Translations under genes and position numbers: made by a program | Part shown: piece after piece, positions 3,609 to 53,795 of the stretch | How the letters are laid out: each line of letters starts with the position of its first letter | How positions within the stretch are numbered: the stretch's first letter is position 1 | Notes under the pieces: model-generated | The model's input: the letters and a program-made list of their open reading frames with translations, nothing else | Told to the model about the DNA's origin: nothing | Database searches by the model: none | Assembly (NCBI GenBank): GCA_017441205.1 | Contig: JAFRYG010000142.1 | Coordinates: forward strand, 499-64,498 | Direction of reading: 5' to 3' | Origin: Pseudomonadota bacterium | GTDB lineage: Bacteria; Myxococcota_A; Bradymonadia; UBA4248 | DNA length: 64,000 nucleotides

Positions 3609-4621
3609 GATGGTGCTTCAGAATGGGATGGAAAGTGTGAAAAGCTCTCGTCTGATCGCAGGGATGGAAGTCCATTTTCGAGCCATTGAACGCCAGTTCC
3701 CTGCATACAGGAGCCAATCCGGAAACAGGAGATTCCATTTTCCCGGGCCAGATTTATGATGGTCATAGCATGATTTGGCTCACACGTCATGAGTAATCCA
3801 AAATCTTCTCCGCCGCAAAGCATCCAGTCGATGGGATCGAGATCAAATTTTTCGGCAATTTCGCATAGCTGCGGCGGTGGCGTGAGGTTTTCGATTTGTA
3901 TTTTTGCCGCGCAATGACTCTGCATCATGAGTCTTGGCAGATCTGTCCGAATGCCATCCGAAAGGTCCATCATCGCGGTGGCCAGCTGTCTTCGTGCGAT
4001 GGCAGGTCCCAGTGCGGCGAGTGCTTTGGGGCGTCTGAAGTCCTGGATGAAGGTGGCGAATTTTTGGAATTCAGGTGTGAGGTGCAGTCCGCGCCGGCAG
4101 ATTTCGAGGCCGGCTGCAGAGAATCCGGGATTGCCGAGGACCAGAATGGCATTTCCGGGTCTGGCACCAGTGCGGAGCACTGCCGGCCAGGGCGGGTTTT
4201 GACCGAGCAAAGTAATGGAGAACAAGGTTTGCCGGCTGCGTACGACGTCGCCGCCGATGAGCCAGCATTTATCGAGTCCGTGGTCCTGGATACAGGATTT
4301 GATTGCCTGAACTGCCGCCTGAATTTCGTGCAAAGGGAGTGCAGGGGACAGGCCGAGTGCCAGTGTGAACGGCCCGGCATAAGCGCCCATGGCGGCGATA
4401 TCACTGATATTTGAGGTCATGCAGCGATAGGCGGCATCTGCCAGCGTCATCCACTCGAGATTGAAGTGGACGCCTTCGATGGAGGCATCTGTCGTTATGA
4501 GGTCGAATCGGGTCCGCAAAATGGCGCAATCATCGCCGATGCCTCTGATCGTGATATCATCGCGCGAAGGGAATTCGCGCGATATGAGATCGATGATTTG
4601 CGATTCGGTCCAGTCGGACAT
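3605..4621 (-). CDS. thiL: Thiamine-monophosphate kinase
   Basis: GIGDDCA, EGVHF, SNISDIAAMGA, GGD, AMMDLSDG and GGEDFGLL motifs. Confidence 0.93.
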   Translation of the reverse strand: MSDWTESQIIDLISREFPSRDDITIRGIGDDCAILRTRFDLITTDASIEGVHFNLEWMTLADAAYRCMTSNISDIAAMGAYAGPFTLALGLSPALPLHEIQAAVQAIKSCIQDHGLDKCWLIGGDVVRSRQTLFSITLLGQNPPWPAVLRTGARPGNAILVLGNPGFSAAGLEICRRGLHLTPEFQKFATFIQDFRRPKALAALGPAIARRQLATAMMDLSDGIRTDLPRLMMQSHCAAKIQIENLTPPPQLCEIAEKFDLDPIDWMLCGGEDFGLLMTCEPNHAMTIINLARENGISCFRIGSCMQGTGVQWLENGLPSLRSDESFSHFPSHSEAPS

Positions 4622-6875: not shown

Positions 6876-8546
6876 CTATCTCACTACCAAATCCAGTAAA
6901 TTGGAGAGCGTAATACTAAAGAGGCCGTAATCTGTTTTGAAGCGGATTCCGGCGTTAAAGGACATGTCAGCAGCAAAGCTGTCGCGGATTTGCTGTGGCT
7001 GAGTTCCCAGGAAGAGGCTTCGTGATTCGAGAGAATCGGCCCATGTGGCGCCGACAGACAGGAAAATCTCGAGCATTCTGGCGACAGGCTGCCAGGCATA
7101 AGTCAGAGCAATATGCGCGATGAAATCTTCATAAGAGAGCCCGGAGGCACCTGTTTTGAACAGATCATATGCGCCGCGATGGCTCGGGTTGAGCATGAAA
7201 AATCTCGAAGGCGCCAGCGTATAAAAATCTCTGTAGAAGAATTTTTCGAAAAATGGCGCATTGCCCCAGGTCGCTCCCCAGAAAGACTGGAGCCGAATCA
7301 CATGATGGACATCGGCGTTAAAGTTGCTCTGGTGTGCGAGGTGCATTCTGAAATAGGAATAGTCGGACGCGGAGGTTCTGGCAGTCCCTTTCAGACCGAG
7401 CATGATAAAATGCCCTTTGTTGGGGAGGATGCGGCCTGCCCGGCTGTCGTACATGACGTTTGCTTCGATGGTGGTCAGATTGCCATGGCCTGCTTTCATG
7501 AAATCGTCGAGTTCTGTGCGAACTGTCGACAAATCATTGCGGCGAAGCAGATTCATGTATTCGACTCTGAACATGAGTCGGACGAGCGGATGCGGCGCAT
7601 AACCCAGGCCGATCGATGCGCCATGGCGTTCGAAAACGAGATCATCCAGATATTCAAAGGGATTGGTTTTGTTTTCGCTCGTTTTGATCTCATTGTTGTA
7701 ATAGGAGGGCCCAAAGACGCCTTCATGGGAATGAAGCGATTGGATTGAGAACATCAGTGAGACGGGTTGGTGAGCGATCGTCGGGATGAGGTAATTCATC
7801 GAAAGCGTATAATCATTCGATGATGTTGCCCCGAATGCCATCCGGAAACGGTGATCGGTTGCGAACGGCGCAAGGTAGGTGACATCCAGACCAAGCCAGA
7901 ACGGCGATTTGTAGCTTGAACCGATGGTGTAGTTATTGAACTGCAGATGCGAACGTTCCGAAACATGCAGGTGTATGACGATGCTTCCGCGTTCATTGCC
8001 GGGACGAAGCGACATGTCAACGGAGTTGAACAGACCGCACATTGCGAGGCGGAATCTGGCATCTTCGAGTTCGTCGAGTGTGATTCGATCCGTGTCGTCG
8101 AGGCCAAGCATCTTAATGATTCTTTCCCTCGAAGTCTGTGTGTTGCCTGTGACCCGAATGGTTTGAATGACATATTCCGGATTCGGCAGTCTGGCTTCTT
8201 CGGAGGAGGGAACGAGCTCCAGCGATGAATCCAATTCATCGGCATACTCGCCATCCTCTTCGTCAAGAATGATGTCACCTTCTTCGTATTCGTCATCGAT
8301 GTAATCGTCATCGGTGATTTCTCTGTCGTCTCCCTCCATGTTGTCATCGTTAATGGAATACACCATGTGAGCTGCAGGGACATCGAGCGGTGGATCGACT
8401 TCATTCTGACCGTCATTGTTGTAGGCGGGAGCTGAGTCAGGGAGTGATGTGACTGTCGGGGGAGTGGCTTCTTCCTGGGCAAAGACACTCGCGGGAAACA
8501 TGCATAACGCTAGAATTCCGCAATAAATATATGTTTTAAGTTTCAT
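6876..8546 (-). CDS. BamA/TamA (Omp85) family outer-membrane protein with one POTRA domain and an acidic N-terminal region
   Basis: Signal peptide from MKLKTYIY (8546); POTRA IRVTGNTQTSRERI...LFNSV; barrel motifs YDSR..LPNKG and APFFEKF. Confidence 0.75.
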   Translation of the reverse strand: MKLKTYIYCGILALCMFPASVFAQEEATPPTVTSLPDSAPAYNNDGQNEVDPPLDVPAAHMVYSINDDNMEGDDREITDDDYIDDEYEEGDIILDEEDGEYADELDSSLELVPSSEEARLPNPEYVIQTIRVTGNTQTSRERIIKMLGLDDTDRITLDELEDARFRLAMCGLFNSVDMSLRPGNERGSIVIHLHVSERSHLQFNNYTIGSSYKSPFWLGLDVTYLAPFATDHRFRMAFGATSSNDYTLSMNYLIPTIAHQPVSLMFSIQSLHSHEGVFGPSYYNNEIKTSENKTNPFEYLDDLVFERHGASIGLGYAPHPLVRLMFRVEYMNLLRRNDLSTVRTELDDFMKAGHGNLTTIEANVMYDSRAGRILPNKGHFIMLGLKGTARTSASDYSYFRMHLAHQSNFNADVHHVIRLQSFWGATWGNAPFFEKFFYRDFYTLAPSRFFMLNPSHRGAYDLFKTGASGLSYEDFIAHIALTYAWQPVARMLEIFLSVGATWADSLESRSLFLGTQPQQIRDSFAADMSFNAGIRFKTDYGLFSITLSNLLDLVVR

Positions 8547-35145: not shown

Positions 35146-35449
35146 GGAGTCTCCTTATTGTCTGGGACAGGGGGATTCCCGTCATATACATGATGCCGTC
35201 GAGATGGATTTGTTGCAGTCGGATGGATTATTTTTTTGCTATGTTTAATCACCGTGGAGAATGCAGATATAAGGTCATGATTTATCGGCAATCGACAATC
35301 GAAAATATGGAATTCTATAGTTCCTATTGTCTATCCTGGTTTCACTTGCTGTTATACGGCATCCTCTCTATTCTGGCGCAGCATGGGGCGCTGCCGCTCT
35401 GCCGAAAGAACGCTGAAGGCGTGCAAGCGTACAATCGAATTCCGTAAAC

Positions 35450-36044
35450 CCAATCTTGTTTAACAGAGTATTATATAGCACAGAACACTGACAATTATTA
35501 TCTGTCATATGTCATACTTAAATAAACTTCCATGGATACTGCAAATATAAGGGCTTATCGGTAGTCATAAATCGGCAATATCGGATTCAACATGATGCGT
35601 ATCTTAAAATGGCATTCTTTACCTAATCTTGTTTAACAGAGTCATTTTATATCAATGAACGCTGACAATTATTGTACTGGCCATAGATAATGACAACAAT
35701 ATACAATTTTTCTTTTCCCGGGGCATCCCCTACGGGGATTGATTTTGGTGCATTTCTTTTGTCCCACGGTGGTCGCTGCGCTCCAACCGTGGGCTACTCG
35801 CCAGAAGCCTCTAACAGGTTTCTTTTGATATGCTCATTAACCATGTCCATAACAATAATTGTCTGTCATATGTCATATTTAAAACTTCCATGAATACTGC
35901 AAATATAGGGTCTTGGTATTATCGGTAATCTTAAGTCGGCAATATTGGATTTAACATGCGCATGTCTTAAAATGGCATCCTTTATCCAATCTCGTTTAAC
36001 AGAGCCATTTATAGCAATGAACGCTGACAATTATTATCTGTCAT
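35450..36044. repeat. ~173-bp AT-rich degenerate tandem repeat (about 2.4 clear units, interrupted by a ~180-bp insert)
   Basis: [C/T]AATCT[T/C]GTTTAACAGAG recurs at 35451, 35624 and 35987; flanking blocks are conserved. Confidence 0.85.
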
Positions 36045-36127
36045 TCAGATTTTAGCATACATCCAATACTATATTATGTAACGTAAAATACTATTCCAGG
36101 TAACTATTGATTACTTTTGGATATACA

Positions 36128-36506
36128 CACATGTAGTATAATGTAGGTTTGATATTCTTCCTGGTAACCAAGGGTTACCTCAGGTCCCTTCCCACCCGCC
36201 GACTCGCCGTCCAAACCCAAAATACGCACGGTCCTGGCACACTGCTCCCTTTCCAACGTTAGGCGTTGTAAAAAAAAGCATCCCGATGTGCCTGGCATGT
36301 ACAGCGCTTCAATGTCACGTCCCGCGTCCAGGAAAAGTTGACATTGCAAACCGGCCCTCGGTCGTCCGTACATTATGTTGGGCTGCTGTTGTCAGACAAA
36401 ACCGGATGAATACATATGCATCTCCAAAATCAGGAAGGAACCATTCCTTCATCCACGTAATGCCATTGAGGATGCATTTGTTTCACTTGTGTGTACGATT
36501 TTTTTT
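36128..36506 (-). ncRNA. Candidate large structured ncRNA of unknown family, copy 1
   Basis: Homologous to 53261-53637, with 50-nt and 38-nt identical blocks and covarying stems. Confidence 0.7.
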
Positions 36507-53183: not shown

Positions 53184-53212
53184 CTTATGCCGAATACTGT
53201 TGGATTTGTCAA
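53184..53212 (-). promoter_or_regulatory. Sigma70-type promoter of tRNA-Met
   Basis: TTGACA-17 bp-CATAAG followed by a GC-rich discriminator (GCCGCC). Confidence 0.7.
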
Positions 53213-53260
53213 ATGTTTTTTGTACTTTTTGGATATCATGGCAATCAGATCCGGTTTTGC

Positions 53261-53637
53261 AAAAAAAATCATACACCAAAATGAAACAATTGCTTTCCCG
53301 ATGGCATCATGAATACGAAGGAATAGTCCTTCCTGTTTTGGGGAGTGAGAGATGTTTTTATCTGGATTTGTCTGACACAGAGTCCCCCGACATAATGTAC
53401 GGACGACCGAGGGGCGGTTTGCGGCATTGTGATATCCGGACGCGGGGGATAATGCTGAAGTGCTGTACATGCCAGGCACATCGGGATGCTTTTTTTTACG
53501 ACACTTGATTTCGGAAAGGAGGCAGTGTGCCATGACCGTGCGTATTTTGGGTTTGGACGGCGAGTCGGCGGGTGGGAAGGGACGAGAGGTAACCCTGGTT
53601 ACCTGGAATAATATTAAAACCGCATTGTGCTACATGT
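53261..53637 (+). ncRNA. Candidate large structured ncRNA of unknown family, copy 2
   Basis: Homolog of 36128-36506; helices close fully only on this strand (G.U pairs). Confidence 0.72.
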
Positions 53638-53706
53638 AGGTGTACTGTTTATCAACGAAAGCTATTCTTTCGTAACGGGGAGAGACCAAGGGAATTTATT
53701 CCAATG

Positions 53707-53795
53707 CAAGCCATCCTAAAAACAGGGGGATTGGTTCGGCGCGGCGAAGGATTTTGTTGTCGGTGTCAAGCCATCCTTACAACAGGGGAATTGGT
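53707..53795. repeat. Two 29-bp direct repeats with a 31-bp spacer (possible third degenerate unit near 53659)
   Basis: CAAGCCATCCTAAAAACAGGGGGATTGGT / CAAGCCATCCTTACAACAGGGGAATTGGT. Confidence 0.65.

Follow-up and report, generated by a model that had tools for sequence, protein, structure and literature searches.

What is the element of about 380 nt that occurs twice, in opposite orientations, in the 64-kb stretch of DNA analyzed here (the window)? The initial annotation placed one copy at 36128-36506 on the minus strand, downstream of larE, and the other at 53261-53637 on the plus strand, and proposed a new large structured RNA. Alignment with MAFFT and BLAST bore out the homology of the two intervals in these orientations. 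The identity was 80.8% across 391 nt, somewhat higher than the 70-75% first estimated. The 50-nt block at 36184-36233 and the 38-nt block at 36268-36305 were indeed the same in both copies, and a 29-mer of the longer block was found at two sites only in the 64 kb, both in the repeat pair (chance expectation, 0). The gene upstream of copy 1 was verified as larE (TIGR00268; 227.6 bits). According to the homology limits in a 30-copy alignment (A3), the whole conserved unit of copy 1, from the A-tract to the 3' tail, spans 36125-36506 (minus strand). The unit of copy 2 spans 53261-53641 (plus strand) and scored 157.5 bits with the covariance model R1.

Alignment A3 comprises 30 distinct copies gathered from the rumen MAG "Myxococcales bacterium UBA4248" and from metagenomes. 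ORF and promoter statistics were based on 27 full copies, and neighborhood analyses on 29 copies. Six further hits were discarded as chance matches: L004, L007 and L011 were read and proved to be unrelated GC-rich sequence, two of them coding for a GESAGG esterase motif, while L015, L016 and L033 were missing the other hallmark motifs of the RNA family. A scan of the 362 kb of collected sequence with R1, which models P2 to P5 and was made without the G-rich block described below, returned known copies only and so provided no independent diverged sample.

At the gathering score, the only Rfam 15 match in the window was tRNA-Met; RNase P, tmRNA, SRP, 6S, T-box and riboswitch models were among those that gave none. 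With the threshold relaxed to E = 10, the window copies and four others showed nothing on the element save one chance match to a lncRNA; this match, to H19_2, reached 11 bits in W1 and 17 bits in L023. The proposal of a large structured RNA that Rfam does not recognize thus held up to E = 10, and a literature search found no description of the family. We conclude that the RNA family is undescribed, lineage-restricted and high-copy, and that it belongs to the uncultured gut/rumen Myxococcota genus UBA4248 and its relatives. It shares several traits with OLE, GOLLD, ROOL and raiA: a length of several hundred nucleotides, a large number of covarying helices, a topology like that of a pseudoknot, near-invariant stretches, discovery by comparative analysis and the lack of an obvious cis-regulated gene. 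ROOL was found in rumen metagenomes. However, none of these classes in Rfam 15 matched the family described here in sequence or structure, and the family, unlike them, is confined to one uncultured genus-level lineage. Moreover, to our knowledge these classes have one or a few copies and no conserved translated mini-ORF, whereas the present family has tens of copies per genome.

Is the element folded as RNA? The initial annotation had proposed a covariation check, and covariation was significant in the 30-copy alignment. In a 67-pair fold, 91% of the alignment cells were paired, compared to 38-50% in slid controls. Changes on both sides were detected in 29 pairs (109 cells), and none of 500 shuffles scored as high. 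Between sister copies, 101 pairs differed; 54 of these were still paired in both, and 20 were double changes. G.U pairs made up about a tenth of the paired cells and were clustered in P5b. The strand of the RNA is fixed because of these G.U pairs, and the Shine-Dalgarno (SD) sequence and ORF described below lie on the same strand.

The domain opens with a C-run (36374-36382, minus strand, as are all copy 1 coordinates below) that leads into a three-way junction (36297-36382). P2 is formed by 36365-36373 with 36297-36305 and encloses the P3 hairpin with its AGGGN loop (36349-36363) and the P4/P4b hairpin with an invariant G-GACG-C tip (36310-36346). All helices predicted from the two window copies exist, and most had covariation support in the larger alignment: both sides were changed in six of the nine pairs of AUGUACGG/CUGUACAU (P2), in all five pairs of GACCG/CGGUU (P3) and in six of the seven pairs of the variable 8-bp stem (P4). 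At the GGACGC tip (P4b), this applied to three of four pairs. The long P5 hairpin (36236-36292; 93-96% of cells paired) consists of a GGCACAU/GUGUGCC base (P5a), a CGGGA internal loop, a G.U-rich UGCU8/GGAAAGGGAGCA helix and an apical stem. Its base was supported by changes that included a swap from G-C to U-A, and the U8/GGAAAGGG helix (P5b) was present and reliant on G.U pairs, as first described. The apical stem also exists, but the CGACA/UUUCG version given for copy 2 contains one mismatch. Finally, both the GAAGG/CCUUC and the GGUAAC/GUUACC helices were found; the latter corresponds to the P7 hairpin GGUAACC-CUU-GGUUACC (36163-36179), with 93% of cells paired and three pairs changed on both sides.

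The 5' strand of P6 (36225-36234, inside 36185-36234) is followed by UAUUUUGGG (36216-36224) and by a near-invariant G-rich block, GGACGGCGAGUCGGCGGGUGGGAAGGGA (36185-36212), which is the same in W1 and W2. The P6 part of the domain pairs with this G-rich 24- to 28-mer. Three unrelated P6 partner sequences were all complementary to CGGCGAGU, and for the partner AAUUCGCUG the pairing score was significant against shuffles (p = 0.002). The G block owes some of its invariance to ascertainment: copies were collected by exact match to a 20- or 21-mer taken from it. Two copies were recovered independently of the block; one had a single mismatch in it and the other had diverged. The helix CCC[A/G]ACAUA/UAUUUUGGG (P1), also part of the initial fold, fared less well: it was weak, with 78% of cells paired, and covariation did not support it as first drawn, a comparison of cognate with non-cognate strands giving p = 0.27. 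Together, the compensatory changes indicate that a multi-helix RNA domain of ~230 nt (P2 to P7) is maintained.

Downstream of P7, there is no U-tract and no terminator-like tail. The unit ends with a C/A-rich, G-poor 3' tail with the consensus AAACCACAUUAUACCACAUGUAGGU (36125-36149; A3 columns 417-441), which includes the DNA palindrome CTACATGTAG and at which homology stops. In copy 2, the structured domain lies at 53386-53603, the G-rich block, of the same sequence as in copy 1, at 53555-53582, and the 3' tail at 53617-53641 (all plus strand). Three simple ideas were disfavored. The number of GGA motifs, which a CsrA sponge would need, was not above chance; the fourth G-tract that a G-quadruplex needs was not universal; and a canonical terminator at the 3' end of the unit was absent.

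The initial annotation also held that the element is not protein-coding. This was correct for the long ORFs, whose frame is not conserved between copies, but it missed a conserved ORF of seven codons, M-[Y/F]-x-S-G-F-[V/I/L/T]-stop, which was intact and without indels in 27/27 full copies. In copy 1, this ORF is ATGTATTCATCCGGTTTTGTCTGA (36415-36392), encoding MYSSGFV and followed by a C. In copy 2, it is ATGTTTTTATCTGGATTTGTCTGA (53352-53375, plus strand), encoding MFLSGFV, with the SD sequence GGGGAG at 53340-53345. The SD sequence of copy 1 is GGAG (36422-36425), 6 nt before the AUG, and GAGG, GGAG or GGGGAG is found in the others, so that all 27 full copies have a short ORF with its own ribosome-binding site, as expected for a leader peptide. 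S, G and F were invariant, while the third codon positions varied freely, both for Ser (C in 16, T in 5, G in 3 and A in 3 copies) and for Gly (A in 15, T in 5, C in 4 and G in 3). The stop codon was TGA in 16 copies, TAA in 10 and TAG in 1, the next base was C in 23/27 copies, and the linker from the mini-ORF to the C-run measured 8-16 nt. This substitution pattern indicates purifying selection on the 7-codon ORF at the amino acid level. A type I toxin-antitoxin mRNA was considered and rejected. Toxins of this type are hydrophobic and have roughly 18 residues or more; the ORF has 7 codons, and longer ORFs are frameshifted between copies.

Where does the RNA start? In all copies, homology begins at an A8 tract (36499-36506; 53261-53268, plus strand, in copy 2), which is possibly UP-element-like, and the flanks upstream of it are unrelated. 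It is followed by a promoter-like segment (36457-36486) with GTGAAA, a variable 18-nt spacer and TGG+CATTAC. The consensus of the last part, TGGCATCAT, consists of TGn and a -10-like hexamer (53302-53310, plus strand, in copy 2). The hexamers were conserved, the spacer sequence was variable, and the spacer length was 18 nt in 23/27 copies. Furthermore, the segment resembles the tRNA-Met promoter of the same window, and in copy L027 a terminator is located ~30 nt upstream of the A-tract. The hairpin GAAGGAAUGGUUCCUUC (36434-36450; 53317-53332, plus strand, in copy 2) lies 6-7 nt past the -10-like hexamer, was also detected in a hairpin scan, and had 93% of cells paired in 27 copies; it is probably the 5'-terminal stem-loop of the RNA. 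Thus, the first ~60 nt of the 36128-36506 interval are more likely promoter than RNA. Alternatively, the spacer may provide the 5' strand for an anti-SD helix: some of the copies showed a modest but significant complementarity between it and the SD-AUG spacer (permutation p, 0.002-0.006). If this complementarity is real, the RNA would start further upstream with its SD sequence sequestered, in conflict with the promoter reading. An internal promoter, TTGTCT...CATAAT, was rejected, given that the spacing would vary between 16 and 24 nt among the copies and that the supposed hexamers belong to other features, namely the Phe-Val codons and the P1/P2 strand. Four metatranscriptomes contained no copy of the element. 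Runs X25 and X26 are labeled "RNA", but their short contigs are strandless and DNA carry-over is possible; one of these contigs runs from larE into the element.

We prefer an explanation in which each copy would be a self-contained, ribosome-gated, dual-function RNA gene, neither a gene leader nor an inert repeat, and we hold it with about even confidence. The conserved 5' 60 nt would serve as its own sigma-70-type promoter, composed of the A-tract, a -35-like hexamer, the 18-nt spacer and TGn plus CATCAT, giving an RNA of about 320 nt with its 5' end at the GAAGG hairpin. Translation of the mini-ORF would follow, with the conserved peptide and the stop-C context slowing termination, for which MsrDL is a precedent. 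This hexapeptide (MYLIFM) stalls the ribosome at its own stop codon, and its 6 residues suffice to block release factors (PMC10314930). When held at the stop codon, a ribosome would sit 8-16 nt from the C-run, which could pair either with UUUUGGG (P1) or with GGGUGGG of the invariant block; the G block is without variation, so the latter pairing would leave no covariation signal. Ribosome occupancy might then decide on the exposure of the G-rich strand and also shield the 5' end of the RNA. The exposed strand, together with the C/A-rich tail, may act as an effector surface that binds a protein or an RNA in trans.

A short translated ORF joined to a structured regulatory part is known from the dual-function RNAs SgrS/SgrT, RNAIII/delta-hemolysin and SR1/SR1P, and is putative here. 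The ORFs of those RNAs have some 26-43 codons and their genes are single-copy. The family described here differs from them by a 7-codon ORF and by ~30-50 paralogues.

Could the element serve its own propagation? It may belong, as RNA or DNA, to a non-autonomous mobile element that spreads within each lineage, helped in trans by a transposase, a reverse transcriptase (RT) or an RNA-guided enzyme, with the structure and the mini-ORF serving propagation and not the host, perhaps by engaging ribosomes or the mobilizing protein. We consider this rather unlikely, yet several observations fit it. The depth of the core was 170-260 in run X40 and ~400-590 in run X1, compared to flank depths of 3-6 and 8, respectively; these ratios suggest ~30-50 copies of the RNA family per 3-Mb genome. 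The two copies initially noted in the window are there, but they represent more than a two-copy oddity. Assemblies break at the element, its edges are sharp (~380 bp conserved), and the copies always lie at unrelated intergenic sites, in either orientation relative to their neighbors. The sequence past both edges is copy-specific, as would be the case with a guide at one end of an omegaRNA scaffold and equally with any inserted unit. In one related strain, the tRNA-Met locus orthologous to that of the window holds an additional copy in tandem (L028). In addition, the copies gave a star-like tree whose terminal branches are long, and a single clade (96/94), nested among others, contains every UBA4248 copy; this topology, too, fits a proliferating element and speaks against the dual-function reading.

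On the other hand, no terminal inverted repeats or target-site duplications were noticed when the aligned edges were read by eye, and no gene for IscB, TnpB, IS110, RT or a transposase recurred within 5 kb of the 29 copies. The suggestion of an omegaRNA- or bridge-RNA-like molecule was thus not supported. Like those of IscB/TnpB and IS110, the RNA is structured, 150-300 nt long and part of a repeated element, and non-autonomous copies of such elements exist; in contrast to them, however, none of its 29 loci adjoins a gene for IscB, TnpB or IS110, HEARO gave no match, transposon ends were not recognized, and the unit contains a conserved, putatively translated ORF, which those RNAs are without. 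With regard to IS110 bridge RNAs and IS1111 seekRNAs, no DEDD recombinase gene was recurrent near any copy. Viral contigs scanned with two conserved 21-mers gave no match. Some duplications brought flanking genes along (L009/L010 with a kinase; L031/L034), and the shared flanks mark them as segmental, not as precise transposition. The ORF was intact in every full copy, old and diverged ones included, and sister copies compensated independently, which argues for selection on the resident copies.

The dual-function reading also has to be weighed against a portable promoter-plus-leader cassette that would control any gene located downstream of it. The 7-codon peptide would then be the sensor, for translation status or for a small molecule that binds ribosomes, and the level of Rho-dependent or processive read-through into the next gene would depend on the fold and the C-rich tail. 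Such a cassette, which we regard as unlikely, is in line with the leader-peptide-like ORF with its SD sequence and poor termination context, with the strong-promoter appearance of the 5' region, and with MsrDL-type attenuators. A hairpin with a U-tract was absent within 260 nt after the unit in 20/29 copies and nowhere at a conserved position. Read-through into neighbors is therefore possible, and transcription probably continues past most copies. Moreover, in 19 of the 27 copies with a called downstream gene, that gene was co-oriented, at a distance of 37-960 nt.

In the remaining 8/27 copies, however, the unit faced the 3' end of a convergent gene, and in tandem gene regions copies pointed with their neighbors (4) or against them (5). 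With about a third of the copies facing a convergent gene, the "long leader" option of the initial annotation is weakened. The downstream genes were unrelated: the 63 proteins encoded by immediate neighbors of the 29 copies gave 53 singleton clusters, and among 107 proteins within 5 kb the only recurrent families were Pkinase, with 4 members, and a few housekeeping families of two members each. Associations with any neighboring gene family (29 copies), with tRNA genes, with a small protein conserved downstream and with conserved flanks of any kind were all rejected, the flanks being unrelated. A simple gene leader is thus argued against by the lack of a shared partner gene and by the presence of copies in either orientation to their neighbors. 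The distance to the next start codon was variable, the sequence from the tail to the next gene was not conserved, and there was no conserved U-tract terminator or antiterminator alternative. MsrDL and TnaC are likewise very short conserved peptides after an SD sequence, with conserved last residues and stop context, but they are located directly upstream of one regulated gene and operate a terminator/antiterminator switch; here, neither a common downstream gene nor a conserved terminator was found. Furthermore, known peptide attenuators need far less than a pseudoknotted domain of 230 nt that includes an invariant strand.

Less probable still is that the heptapeptide itself is the product (a signal, an RiPP-like precursor, or a "minigene" acting on ribosomes or the tRNA pool) and that the RNA is a regulatory, stabilizing UTR. 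The amino acid-level conservation over 27 copies is compatible with this, and many gene copies could provide a high output. Precursors of seven residues such as MccA are real, as are the seven-codon mccA genes (PMC6495379). Similar to the ORF described here, mccA has 7 codons and a small, highly structured transcript. McC-type precursors need a C-terminal Asn and a nearby gene for the adenylyltransferase MccB. Here, the peptide ends in V, I, L or T instead of Asn, there is no MccB-like enzyme nearby, and the copies are multiple and dispersed; in addition, no modifying or export gene recurred within 5 kb of the ORF in 29 copies. Moreover, the RNA domain is more conserved and elaborate than a stabilizer requires, and its G-rich strand is without an obvious role in translation.

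Finally, a DNA-level intergenic repeat (REP/BIME-like or a protein-binding array), its helices being DNA hairpins without RNA function, is very improbable: the hairpins downstream of some copies and the palindrome in the 3' tail would suit it, but the helices need G.U pairs, which are C.A mismatches on the opposite strand, nothing at the DNA level would explain why the mini-ORF varies with codon period, and 380 bp with long-range nested pairing is unlike REP units. The element shares with BOX, ERIC, Correia and REP sequences the tens of foldable intergenic copies per genome in either orientation. Those repeats, however, are shorter or modular palindromic DNA without codon constraint, whereas the element has a promoter-like 5' end, an SD sequence with an ORF, and strand-specific long-range pairing. 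The same G.U-dependent fold and codon-periodic ORF variation, along with the lack of terminal inverted repeats and target-site duplications on reading by eye, set it apart from REP/BIME- and MITE-type repeats in general.

If the dual-function reading is pursued further, the ribosome-gated RNA could represent a novel type of genetic unit, whose copies would serve jointly, across the genome, as sensors and effectors of translation status, or could be the first bacterial SINE-like elements to use ribosome engagement for their propagation; we offer this as a tentative possibility. Known classes of large structured bacterial RNA each led to unexpected biology, and few such classes are known; the present one is a new large fold with strong covariation and no relative in Rfam 15. 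We know of no previous report that combines tens of copies per small genome, diverged yet each conserved, an apparent strong promoter of their own and, just before the fold, a heptapeptide ORF selected at the amino acid level. In practical terms, the family breaks assemblies of gut Myxococcota and should be masked or modeled, and its invariant G-rich strand of 24-28 nt offers a handle for pull-downs. The 7-codon ORF provides a test case for peptide-dependent termination stalling. If the ribosome does gate the RNA, this would be a new mode of coupling between translation and RNA activity.

The two copies in the window, at 36128-36506 (minus strand; copy 1) and 53261-53637 (plus strand; copy 2), were homologous, with 80.8% identity over 391 nt. 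Both contained the identical blocks of 50 and 38 nt reported in the initial annotation, and a 29-mer from the larger block occurred exactly twice in the window, once per copy, with no occurrence expected by chance. Copy 1 lies downstream of larE (TIGR00268, 227.6 bits), while copy 2 stands back to back with a tRNA-Met gene (Rfam match). Further copies were retrieved by exact matching of words taken from the conserved block (loci numbered with the prefix L). In the species-genome collection, 3 matches were due to chance and 8 were true copies, each from the rumen MAG 'Myxococcales bacterium UBA4248'; the metagenome collection added 27 loci carrying true copies, along with 3 chance matches. Collapsing near-identical sequences left 30 distinct copies, including two by-catch copies from flanks (L024m and L028a), and pairwise identity of the other copies to copies 1 and 2 was mostly 71-83%. 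The 20-mer GGCGAGTCGGCGGGTGGGAA is a pitfall in such fishing; its chance matches (L004 3674-3693; L007 4237-4256) lie inside esterase genes of high-GC Myxococcales and there code for the GESAGG motif.

Public runs containing the family were ruminant and other gut metagenomes, and the element was absent from viral contigs. UBA4248 is a GTDB genus, with a pig-faecal MAG of 3.07 Mb and 52% GC (PMC8772591). In run X40, depth was 3-6 at the window flanks compared to 170-260 summed over the conserved core; in run X1, it was about 8 compared to 400-590. These ratios suggest some 30-50 copies per genome, a rough figure because other strains contribute to the summed core depth.

A 67-pair structure was drawn on an alignment of the 30 copies (A3), and the fate of each pair was counted. 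Standard pairs were present in 91.0% of cells, compared to 38-50% when the 3' partners were slid by 1-3 columns, and changes on both sides were detected at 29 pairs (109 cells) versus 9-17 pairs (14-32 cells) after sliding. By any measure, none of 500 shuffles was as high as observed. Thus, the covariation named in the initial annotation as a check on the fold is present in A3. Both sides had changed in 6 of 9 pairs of P2 (AUGUACGGN/NCUGUACAU), all 5 of P3 (GACCG/CGGUU, AGGGN loop), 6 of 7 in the variable stem P4, 3 of 4 in its tip P4b with the invariant G-GACG-C, and 3 pairs of P7 (GGUAACC/GGUUACC). Pairing reached 96% in P5a (GGCACAU/GUGUGCC, swapping to UGCACAU/GUGUGCA) and 93% both in P5b/c (UGCU8/GGAAAGGGRGCA and the apical stem) and in the 5' hairpin (GAAGG/CCUUC). 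Since G.U pairs make up roughly one-tenth of paired cells and are concentrated in P5b, the fold exists solely on the strand originally proposed. Ten pairs of sister copies differed at 101 base pairs, of which 54 were still paired in both copies, with 20 double changes; pairing has therefore been upheld recently and independently in individual copies.

The segment following P5 has one of three unrelated sequences (GACCGYGCG, AAUUCGCUG, or ACUCGCC), each complementary to CGGCGAGU in the G block, a near-invariant G-rich strand of 24-28 nt (helix P6). For AAUUCGCUG, the pairing exceeded that of shuffled versions (p = 0.002). Helix P1, previously proposed as CCC[A/G]ACAUA/UAUUUUGGG, was not supported: it was 78% paired, and cognate partners had no advantage over non-cognate ones (p = 0.27). 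Pairing of the C-run with GGGUGGG of the G block is possible at least as well as in P1. P1 and P6 together would form a pseudoknot or be mutually alternative, because the UUUUGGG strand sits within the P6 loop. Fishing by conserved-block words accounts in part for the apparent invariance of the G block; one by-catch copy has 1 mismatch in this block, and the second has diverged, with a partly compensating P6 partner.

The earlier statement that the element is not protein-coding stands only in part, since it overlooked a conserved ORF found in all 27 copies covering the region. In each, a purine-rich SD (GAGG, GGAG, or GGGGAG) precedes the AUG, usually by about 5-8 nt, and the ORF has exactly seven codons without indels (consensus M-[Y/F]-x-S-G-F-[V/I/L/T]). 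Positions 1 and 2 of the Ser, Gly, and Phe codons are invariant, third positions vary (Ser C16/T5/G3/A3; Gly A15/T5/C4/G3), and the stop codon is TGA in 16 copies, TAA in 10, and TAG in 1. At the sequence level, this period-three variation is the signature of selection on a putative translated peptide, and ascertainment does not bias the pattern, since the fishing word is ~200 nt distant. A C directly follows the stop in 23 of 27 copies; among fourth bases, C supports termination least well in E. coli. Between the stop and the C-run lie 8-16 nt. There are precedents that so short ORFs can matter: ribosomes stall at the stop codon of the hexapeptide MsrDL (MYLIFM) (PMC10314930), and the majority of microcin C-type precursor genes are 7 codons long (PMC6495379).

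Homology starts at an A8-9 tract, and the sequence upstream of it is unrelated between copies. The tract is followed by (G/A)TG(A/T)AA, a spacer of variable sequence (18 nt in 23 of 27 copies), and a nearly invariant TGGCATCAT, interpretable as TGn followed by a -10-like hexamer; 6-7 nt further on, the GAAGG hairpin begins. The tRNA-Met promoter in the window has the same layout (AAAAAGTACAAAAAACA, TTGACA, 17 nt, and CATAAG with GG before it). Located at 53185-53235 (minus strand), it is a textbook promoter with an A-rich upstream tract and a reference for promoter shape in this organism. At L027, about 30 nt separate the A-tract from the end of an intrinsic terminator upstream, and therefore this copy needs its own promoter. 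We infer that the first ~60 nt are probably the promoter of the unit and that the RNA would begin with the 5'-terminal hairpin. Alternatively, the spacer could be one strand of a helix with the SD-AUG stretch; if real, the RNA starts further upstream and the SD is sequestered. The spacer complements this stretch more often than non-cognate combinations do (p = 0.006 and 0.002); the effect is carried by about eight copies, as exemplified by AUGCAUC/GAUGCAU in copy 1 and CUGAUCUC/GAGAUCAG in L036.

Homology ends after P7 with a conserved C/A-rich, G-poor tail (consensus AAACCACAUUAUACCACAUGUAGGU). No hairpin plus U-tract was detected within 260 nt downstream in 20 of 29 copies, and none at a conserved position in any copy; therefore, the 3' end arises by Rho or processing, or transcription reads on. 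In four metatranscriptomes from studies also containing the DNA, no contig covered the region. Short contigs on the core and the 5' part, one of them spanning larE into the element, came from two RNA-labelled runs (X25 and X26); they are unstranded, at depth 2-11, and with possible DNA carry-over.

With about even confidence, we favor a ribosome-gated dual-function RNA. It would be transcribed from its own promoter and start with the 5' hairpin. Slow termination on the mini-ORF would park a ribosome that shields the 5' end and masks the C-run, and the G-rich strand would consequently be sequestered, or exposed to act on a partner.

That the RNA belongs to a non-autonomous mobile element, for which its copy number speaks, is unlikely. 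A tree built from 26 full copies has a star-like shape (median terminal branch 0.18 changes per site), with the UBA4248 copies in a single clade (96/94) nested among the others, which fits lineage-specific expansion or turnover. L031, L034, and L026 have flanks in common in a mosaic pattern, and thus recombination and segmental duplication contribute. Against mobility, neither a transposase family nor the TnpB, IscB, IS110, or RT families recur among 107 proteins within 5 kb, so that the previously suggested omegaRNA- or bridge-RNA-like nature finds no backing there; an informal reading of the copy edges revealed no terminal inverted repeats or target duplications. Pkinase (4) was the sole family with >2 members, and the kinase neighbors trace to a segmental duplication (L009/L010).

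Individual loci showed additional features. Paralogous membrane Ser/Thr kinases of 650-800 aa adjoin three UBA4248 copies (L005 3331-5274, minus strand; L009 1826-3865; L010 6-2390), and in L009 and L010, kinase and element were apparently duplicated together as a segment. At L028, the copy 2 orthologue of a related strain, a second copy lies in tandem and the 3' third is rearranged; in its region 1-1676, the tRNA-Met gene is duplicated, and the two RNA units lie about 450 nt apart, separated by short tandem repeats (GGAGCTT, GAATAGT/GAATTAT). GC-rich hairpins (e.g., GGCCGCAAAGCGGCT) after some copies (L001 about 7380-7400; L009 about 4230-4260) may be a REP-like family. Copy 1 is closely followed on the minus strand (35150-36100) by a kilobase that is AT-rich, non-coding, and internally repetitive; 36035-35852 and 35673-35491 share 83.6% identity over about 189 nt, each with the inverted repeat TGACAGATAATAATTGTCA. 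In X1, the segment 35636-35903 is multi-copy (depth about 220 versus 8), and the AT-rich repeat segment was not found beside other copies of the family. Two 29-nt direct repeats, CAAGCCATCCTnAnAACAGGGGnATTGGT (53707-53735 and 53767-53795), lie between copy 2 and a 1087-aa TIG-domain gene.

A portable promoter-leader cassette controlling the downstream gene is quite improbable. Where that gene was called (27 copies), it was co-oriented in 19 cases, which speaks for the cassette, and convergent in 8, which speaks against it. The unit is independent of neighboring genes: it is intergenic in all copies, the immediate neighbors of 29 copies (63 proteins) gave 53 singleton clusters, and no association with tRNA genes was found apart from the copy 2 locus. 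With both neighbors known, about 7 units were in divergent regions, 4 in tandem regions and oriented like the genes, 5 in tandem regions and oriented opposite to the genes, and 1 between convergent genes. We consider it very unlikely that the heptapeptide is the main product, its codon pattern speaking for this and the covarying domain against it. An inert DNA repeat is hardly credible given the dependence of the helices on G.U pairs and the period-three variation of the ORF.

At the gathering score of Rfam 15, tRNA was the sole match in the window, and permissive filters up to E = 10 gave nothing meaningful on copy 1 or four other copies, in agreement with the initial annotation, which had recognized none of the known RNA classes that it listed. 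Literature searches found no description of the family. Membership tests placed it outside omegaRNA, bridge RNA, leader attenuators, type I toxin mRNAs, mccA, and REP-type repeats. In kind, it is closest to large structured RNAs without known function and to dual-function RNAs, and whether it is something categorically new is rather doubtful. In summary, this is a new, lineage-restricted, high-copy family, in which each unit joins a conserved heptapeptide ORF to a strand-specific, covariation-supported RNA domain that spans about 230 nt and includes a near-invariant G-rich strand; what is new is that such a copy number, a heptapeptide ORF, and a putatively pseudoknotted domain occur together.
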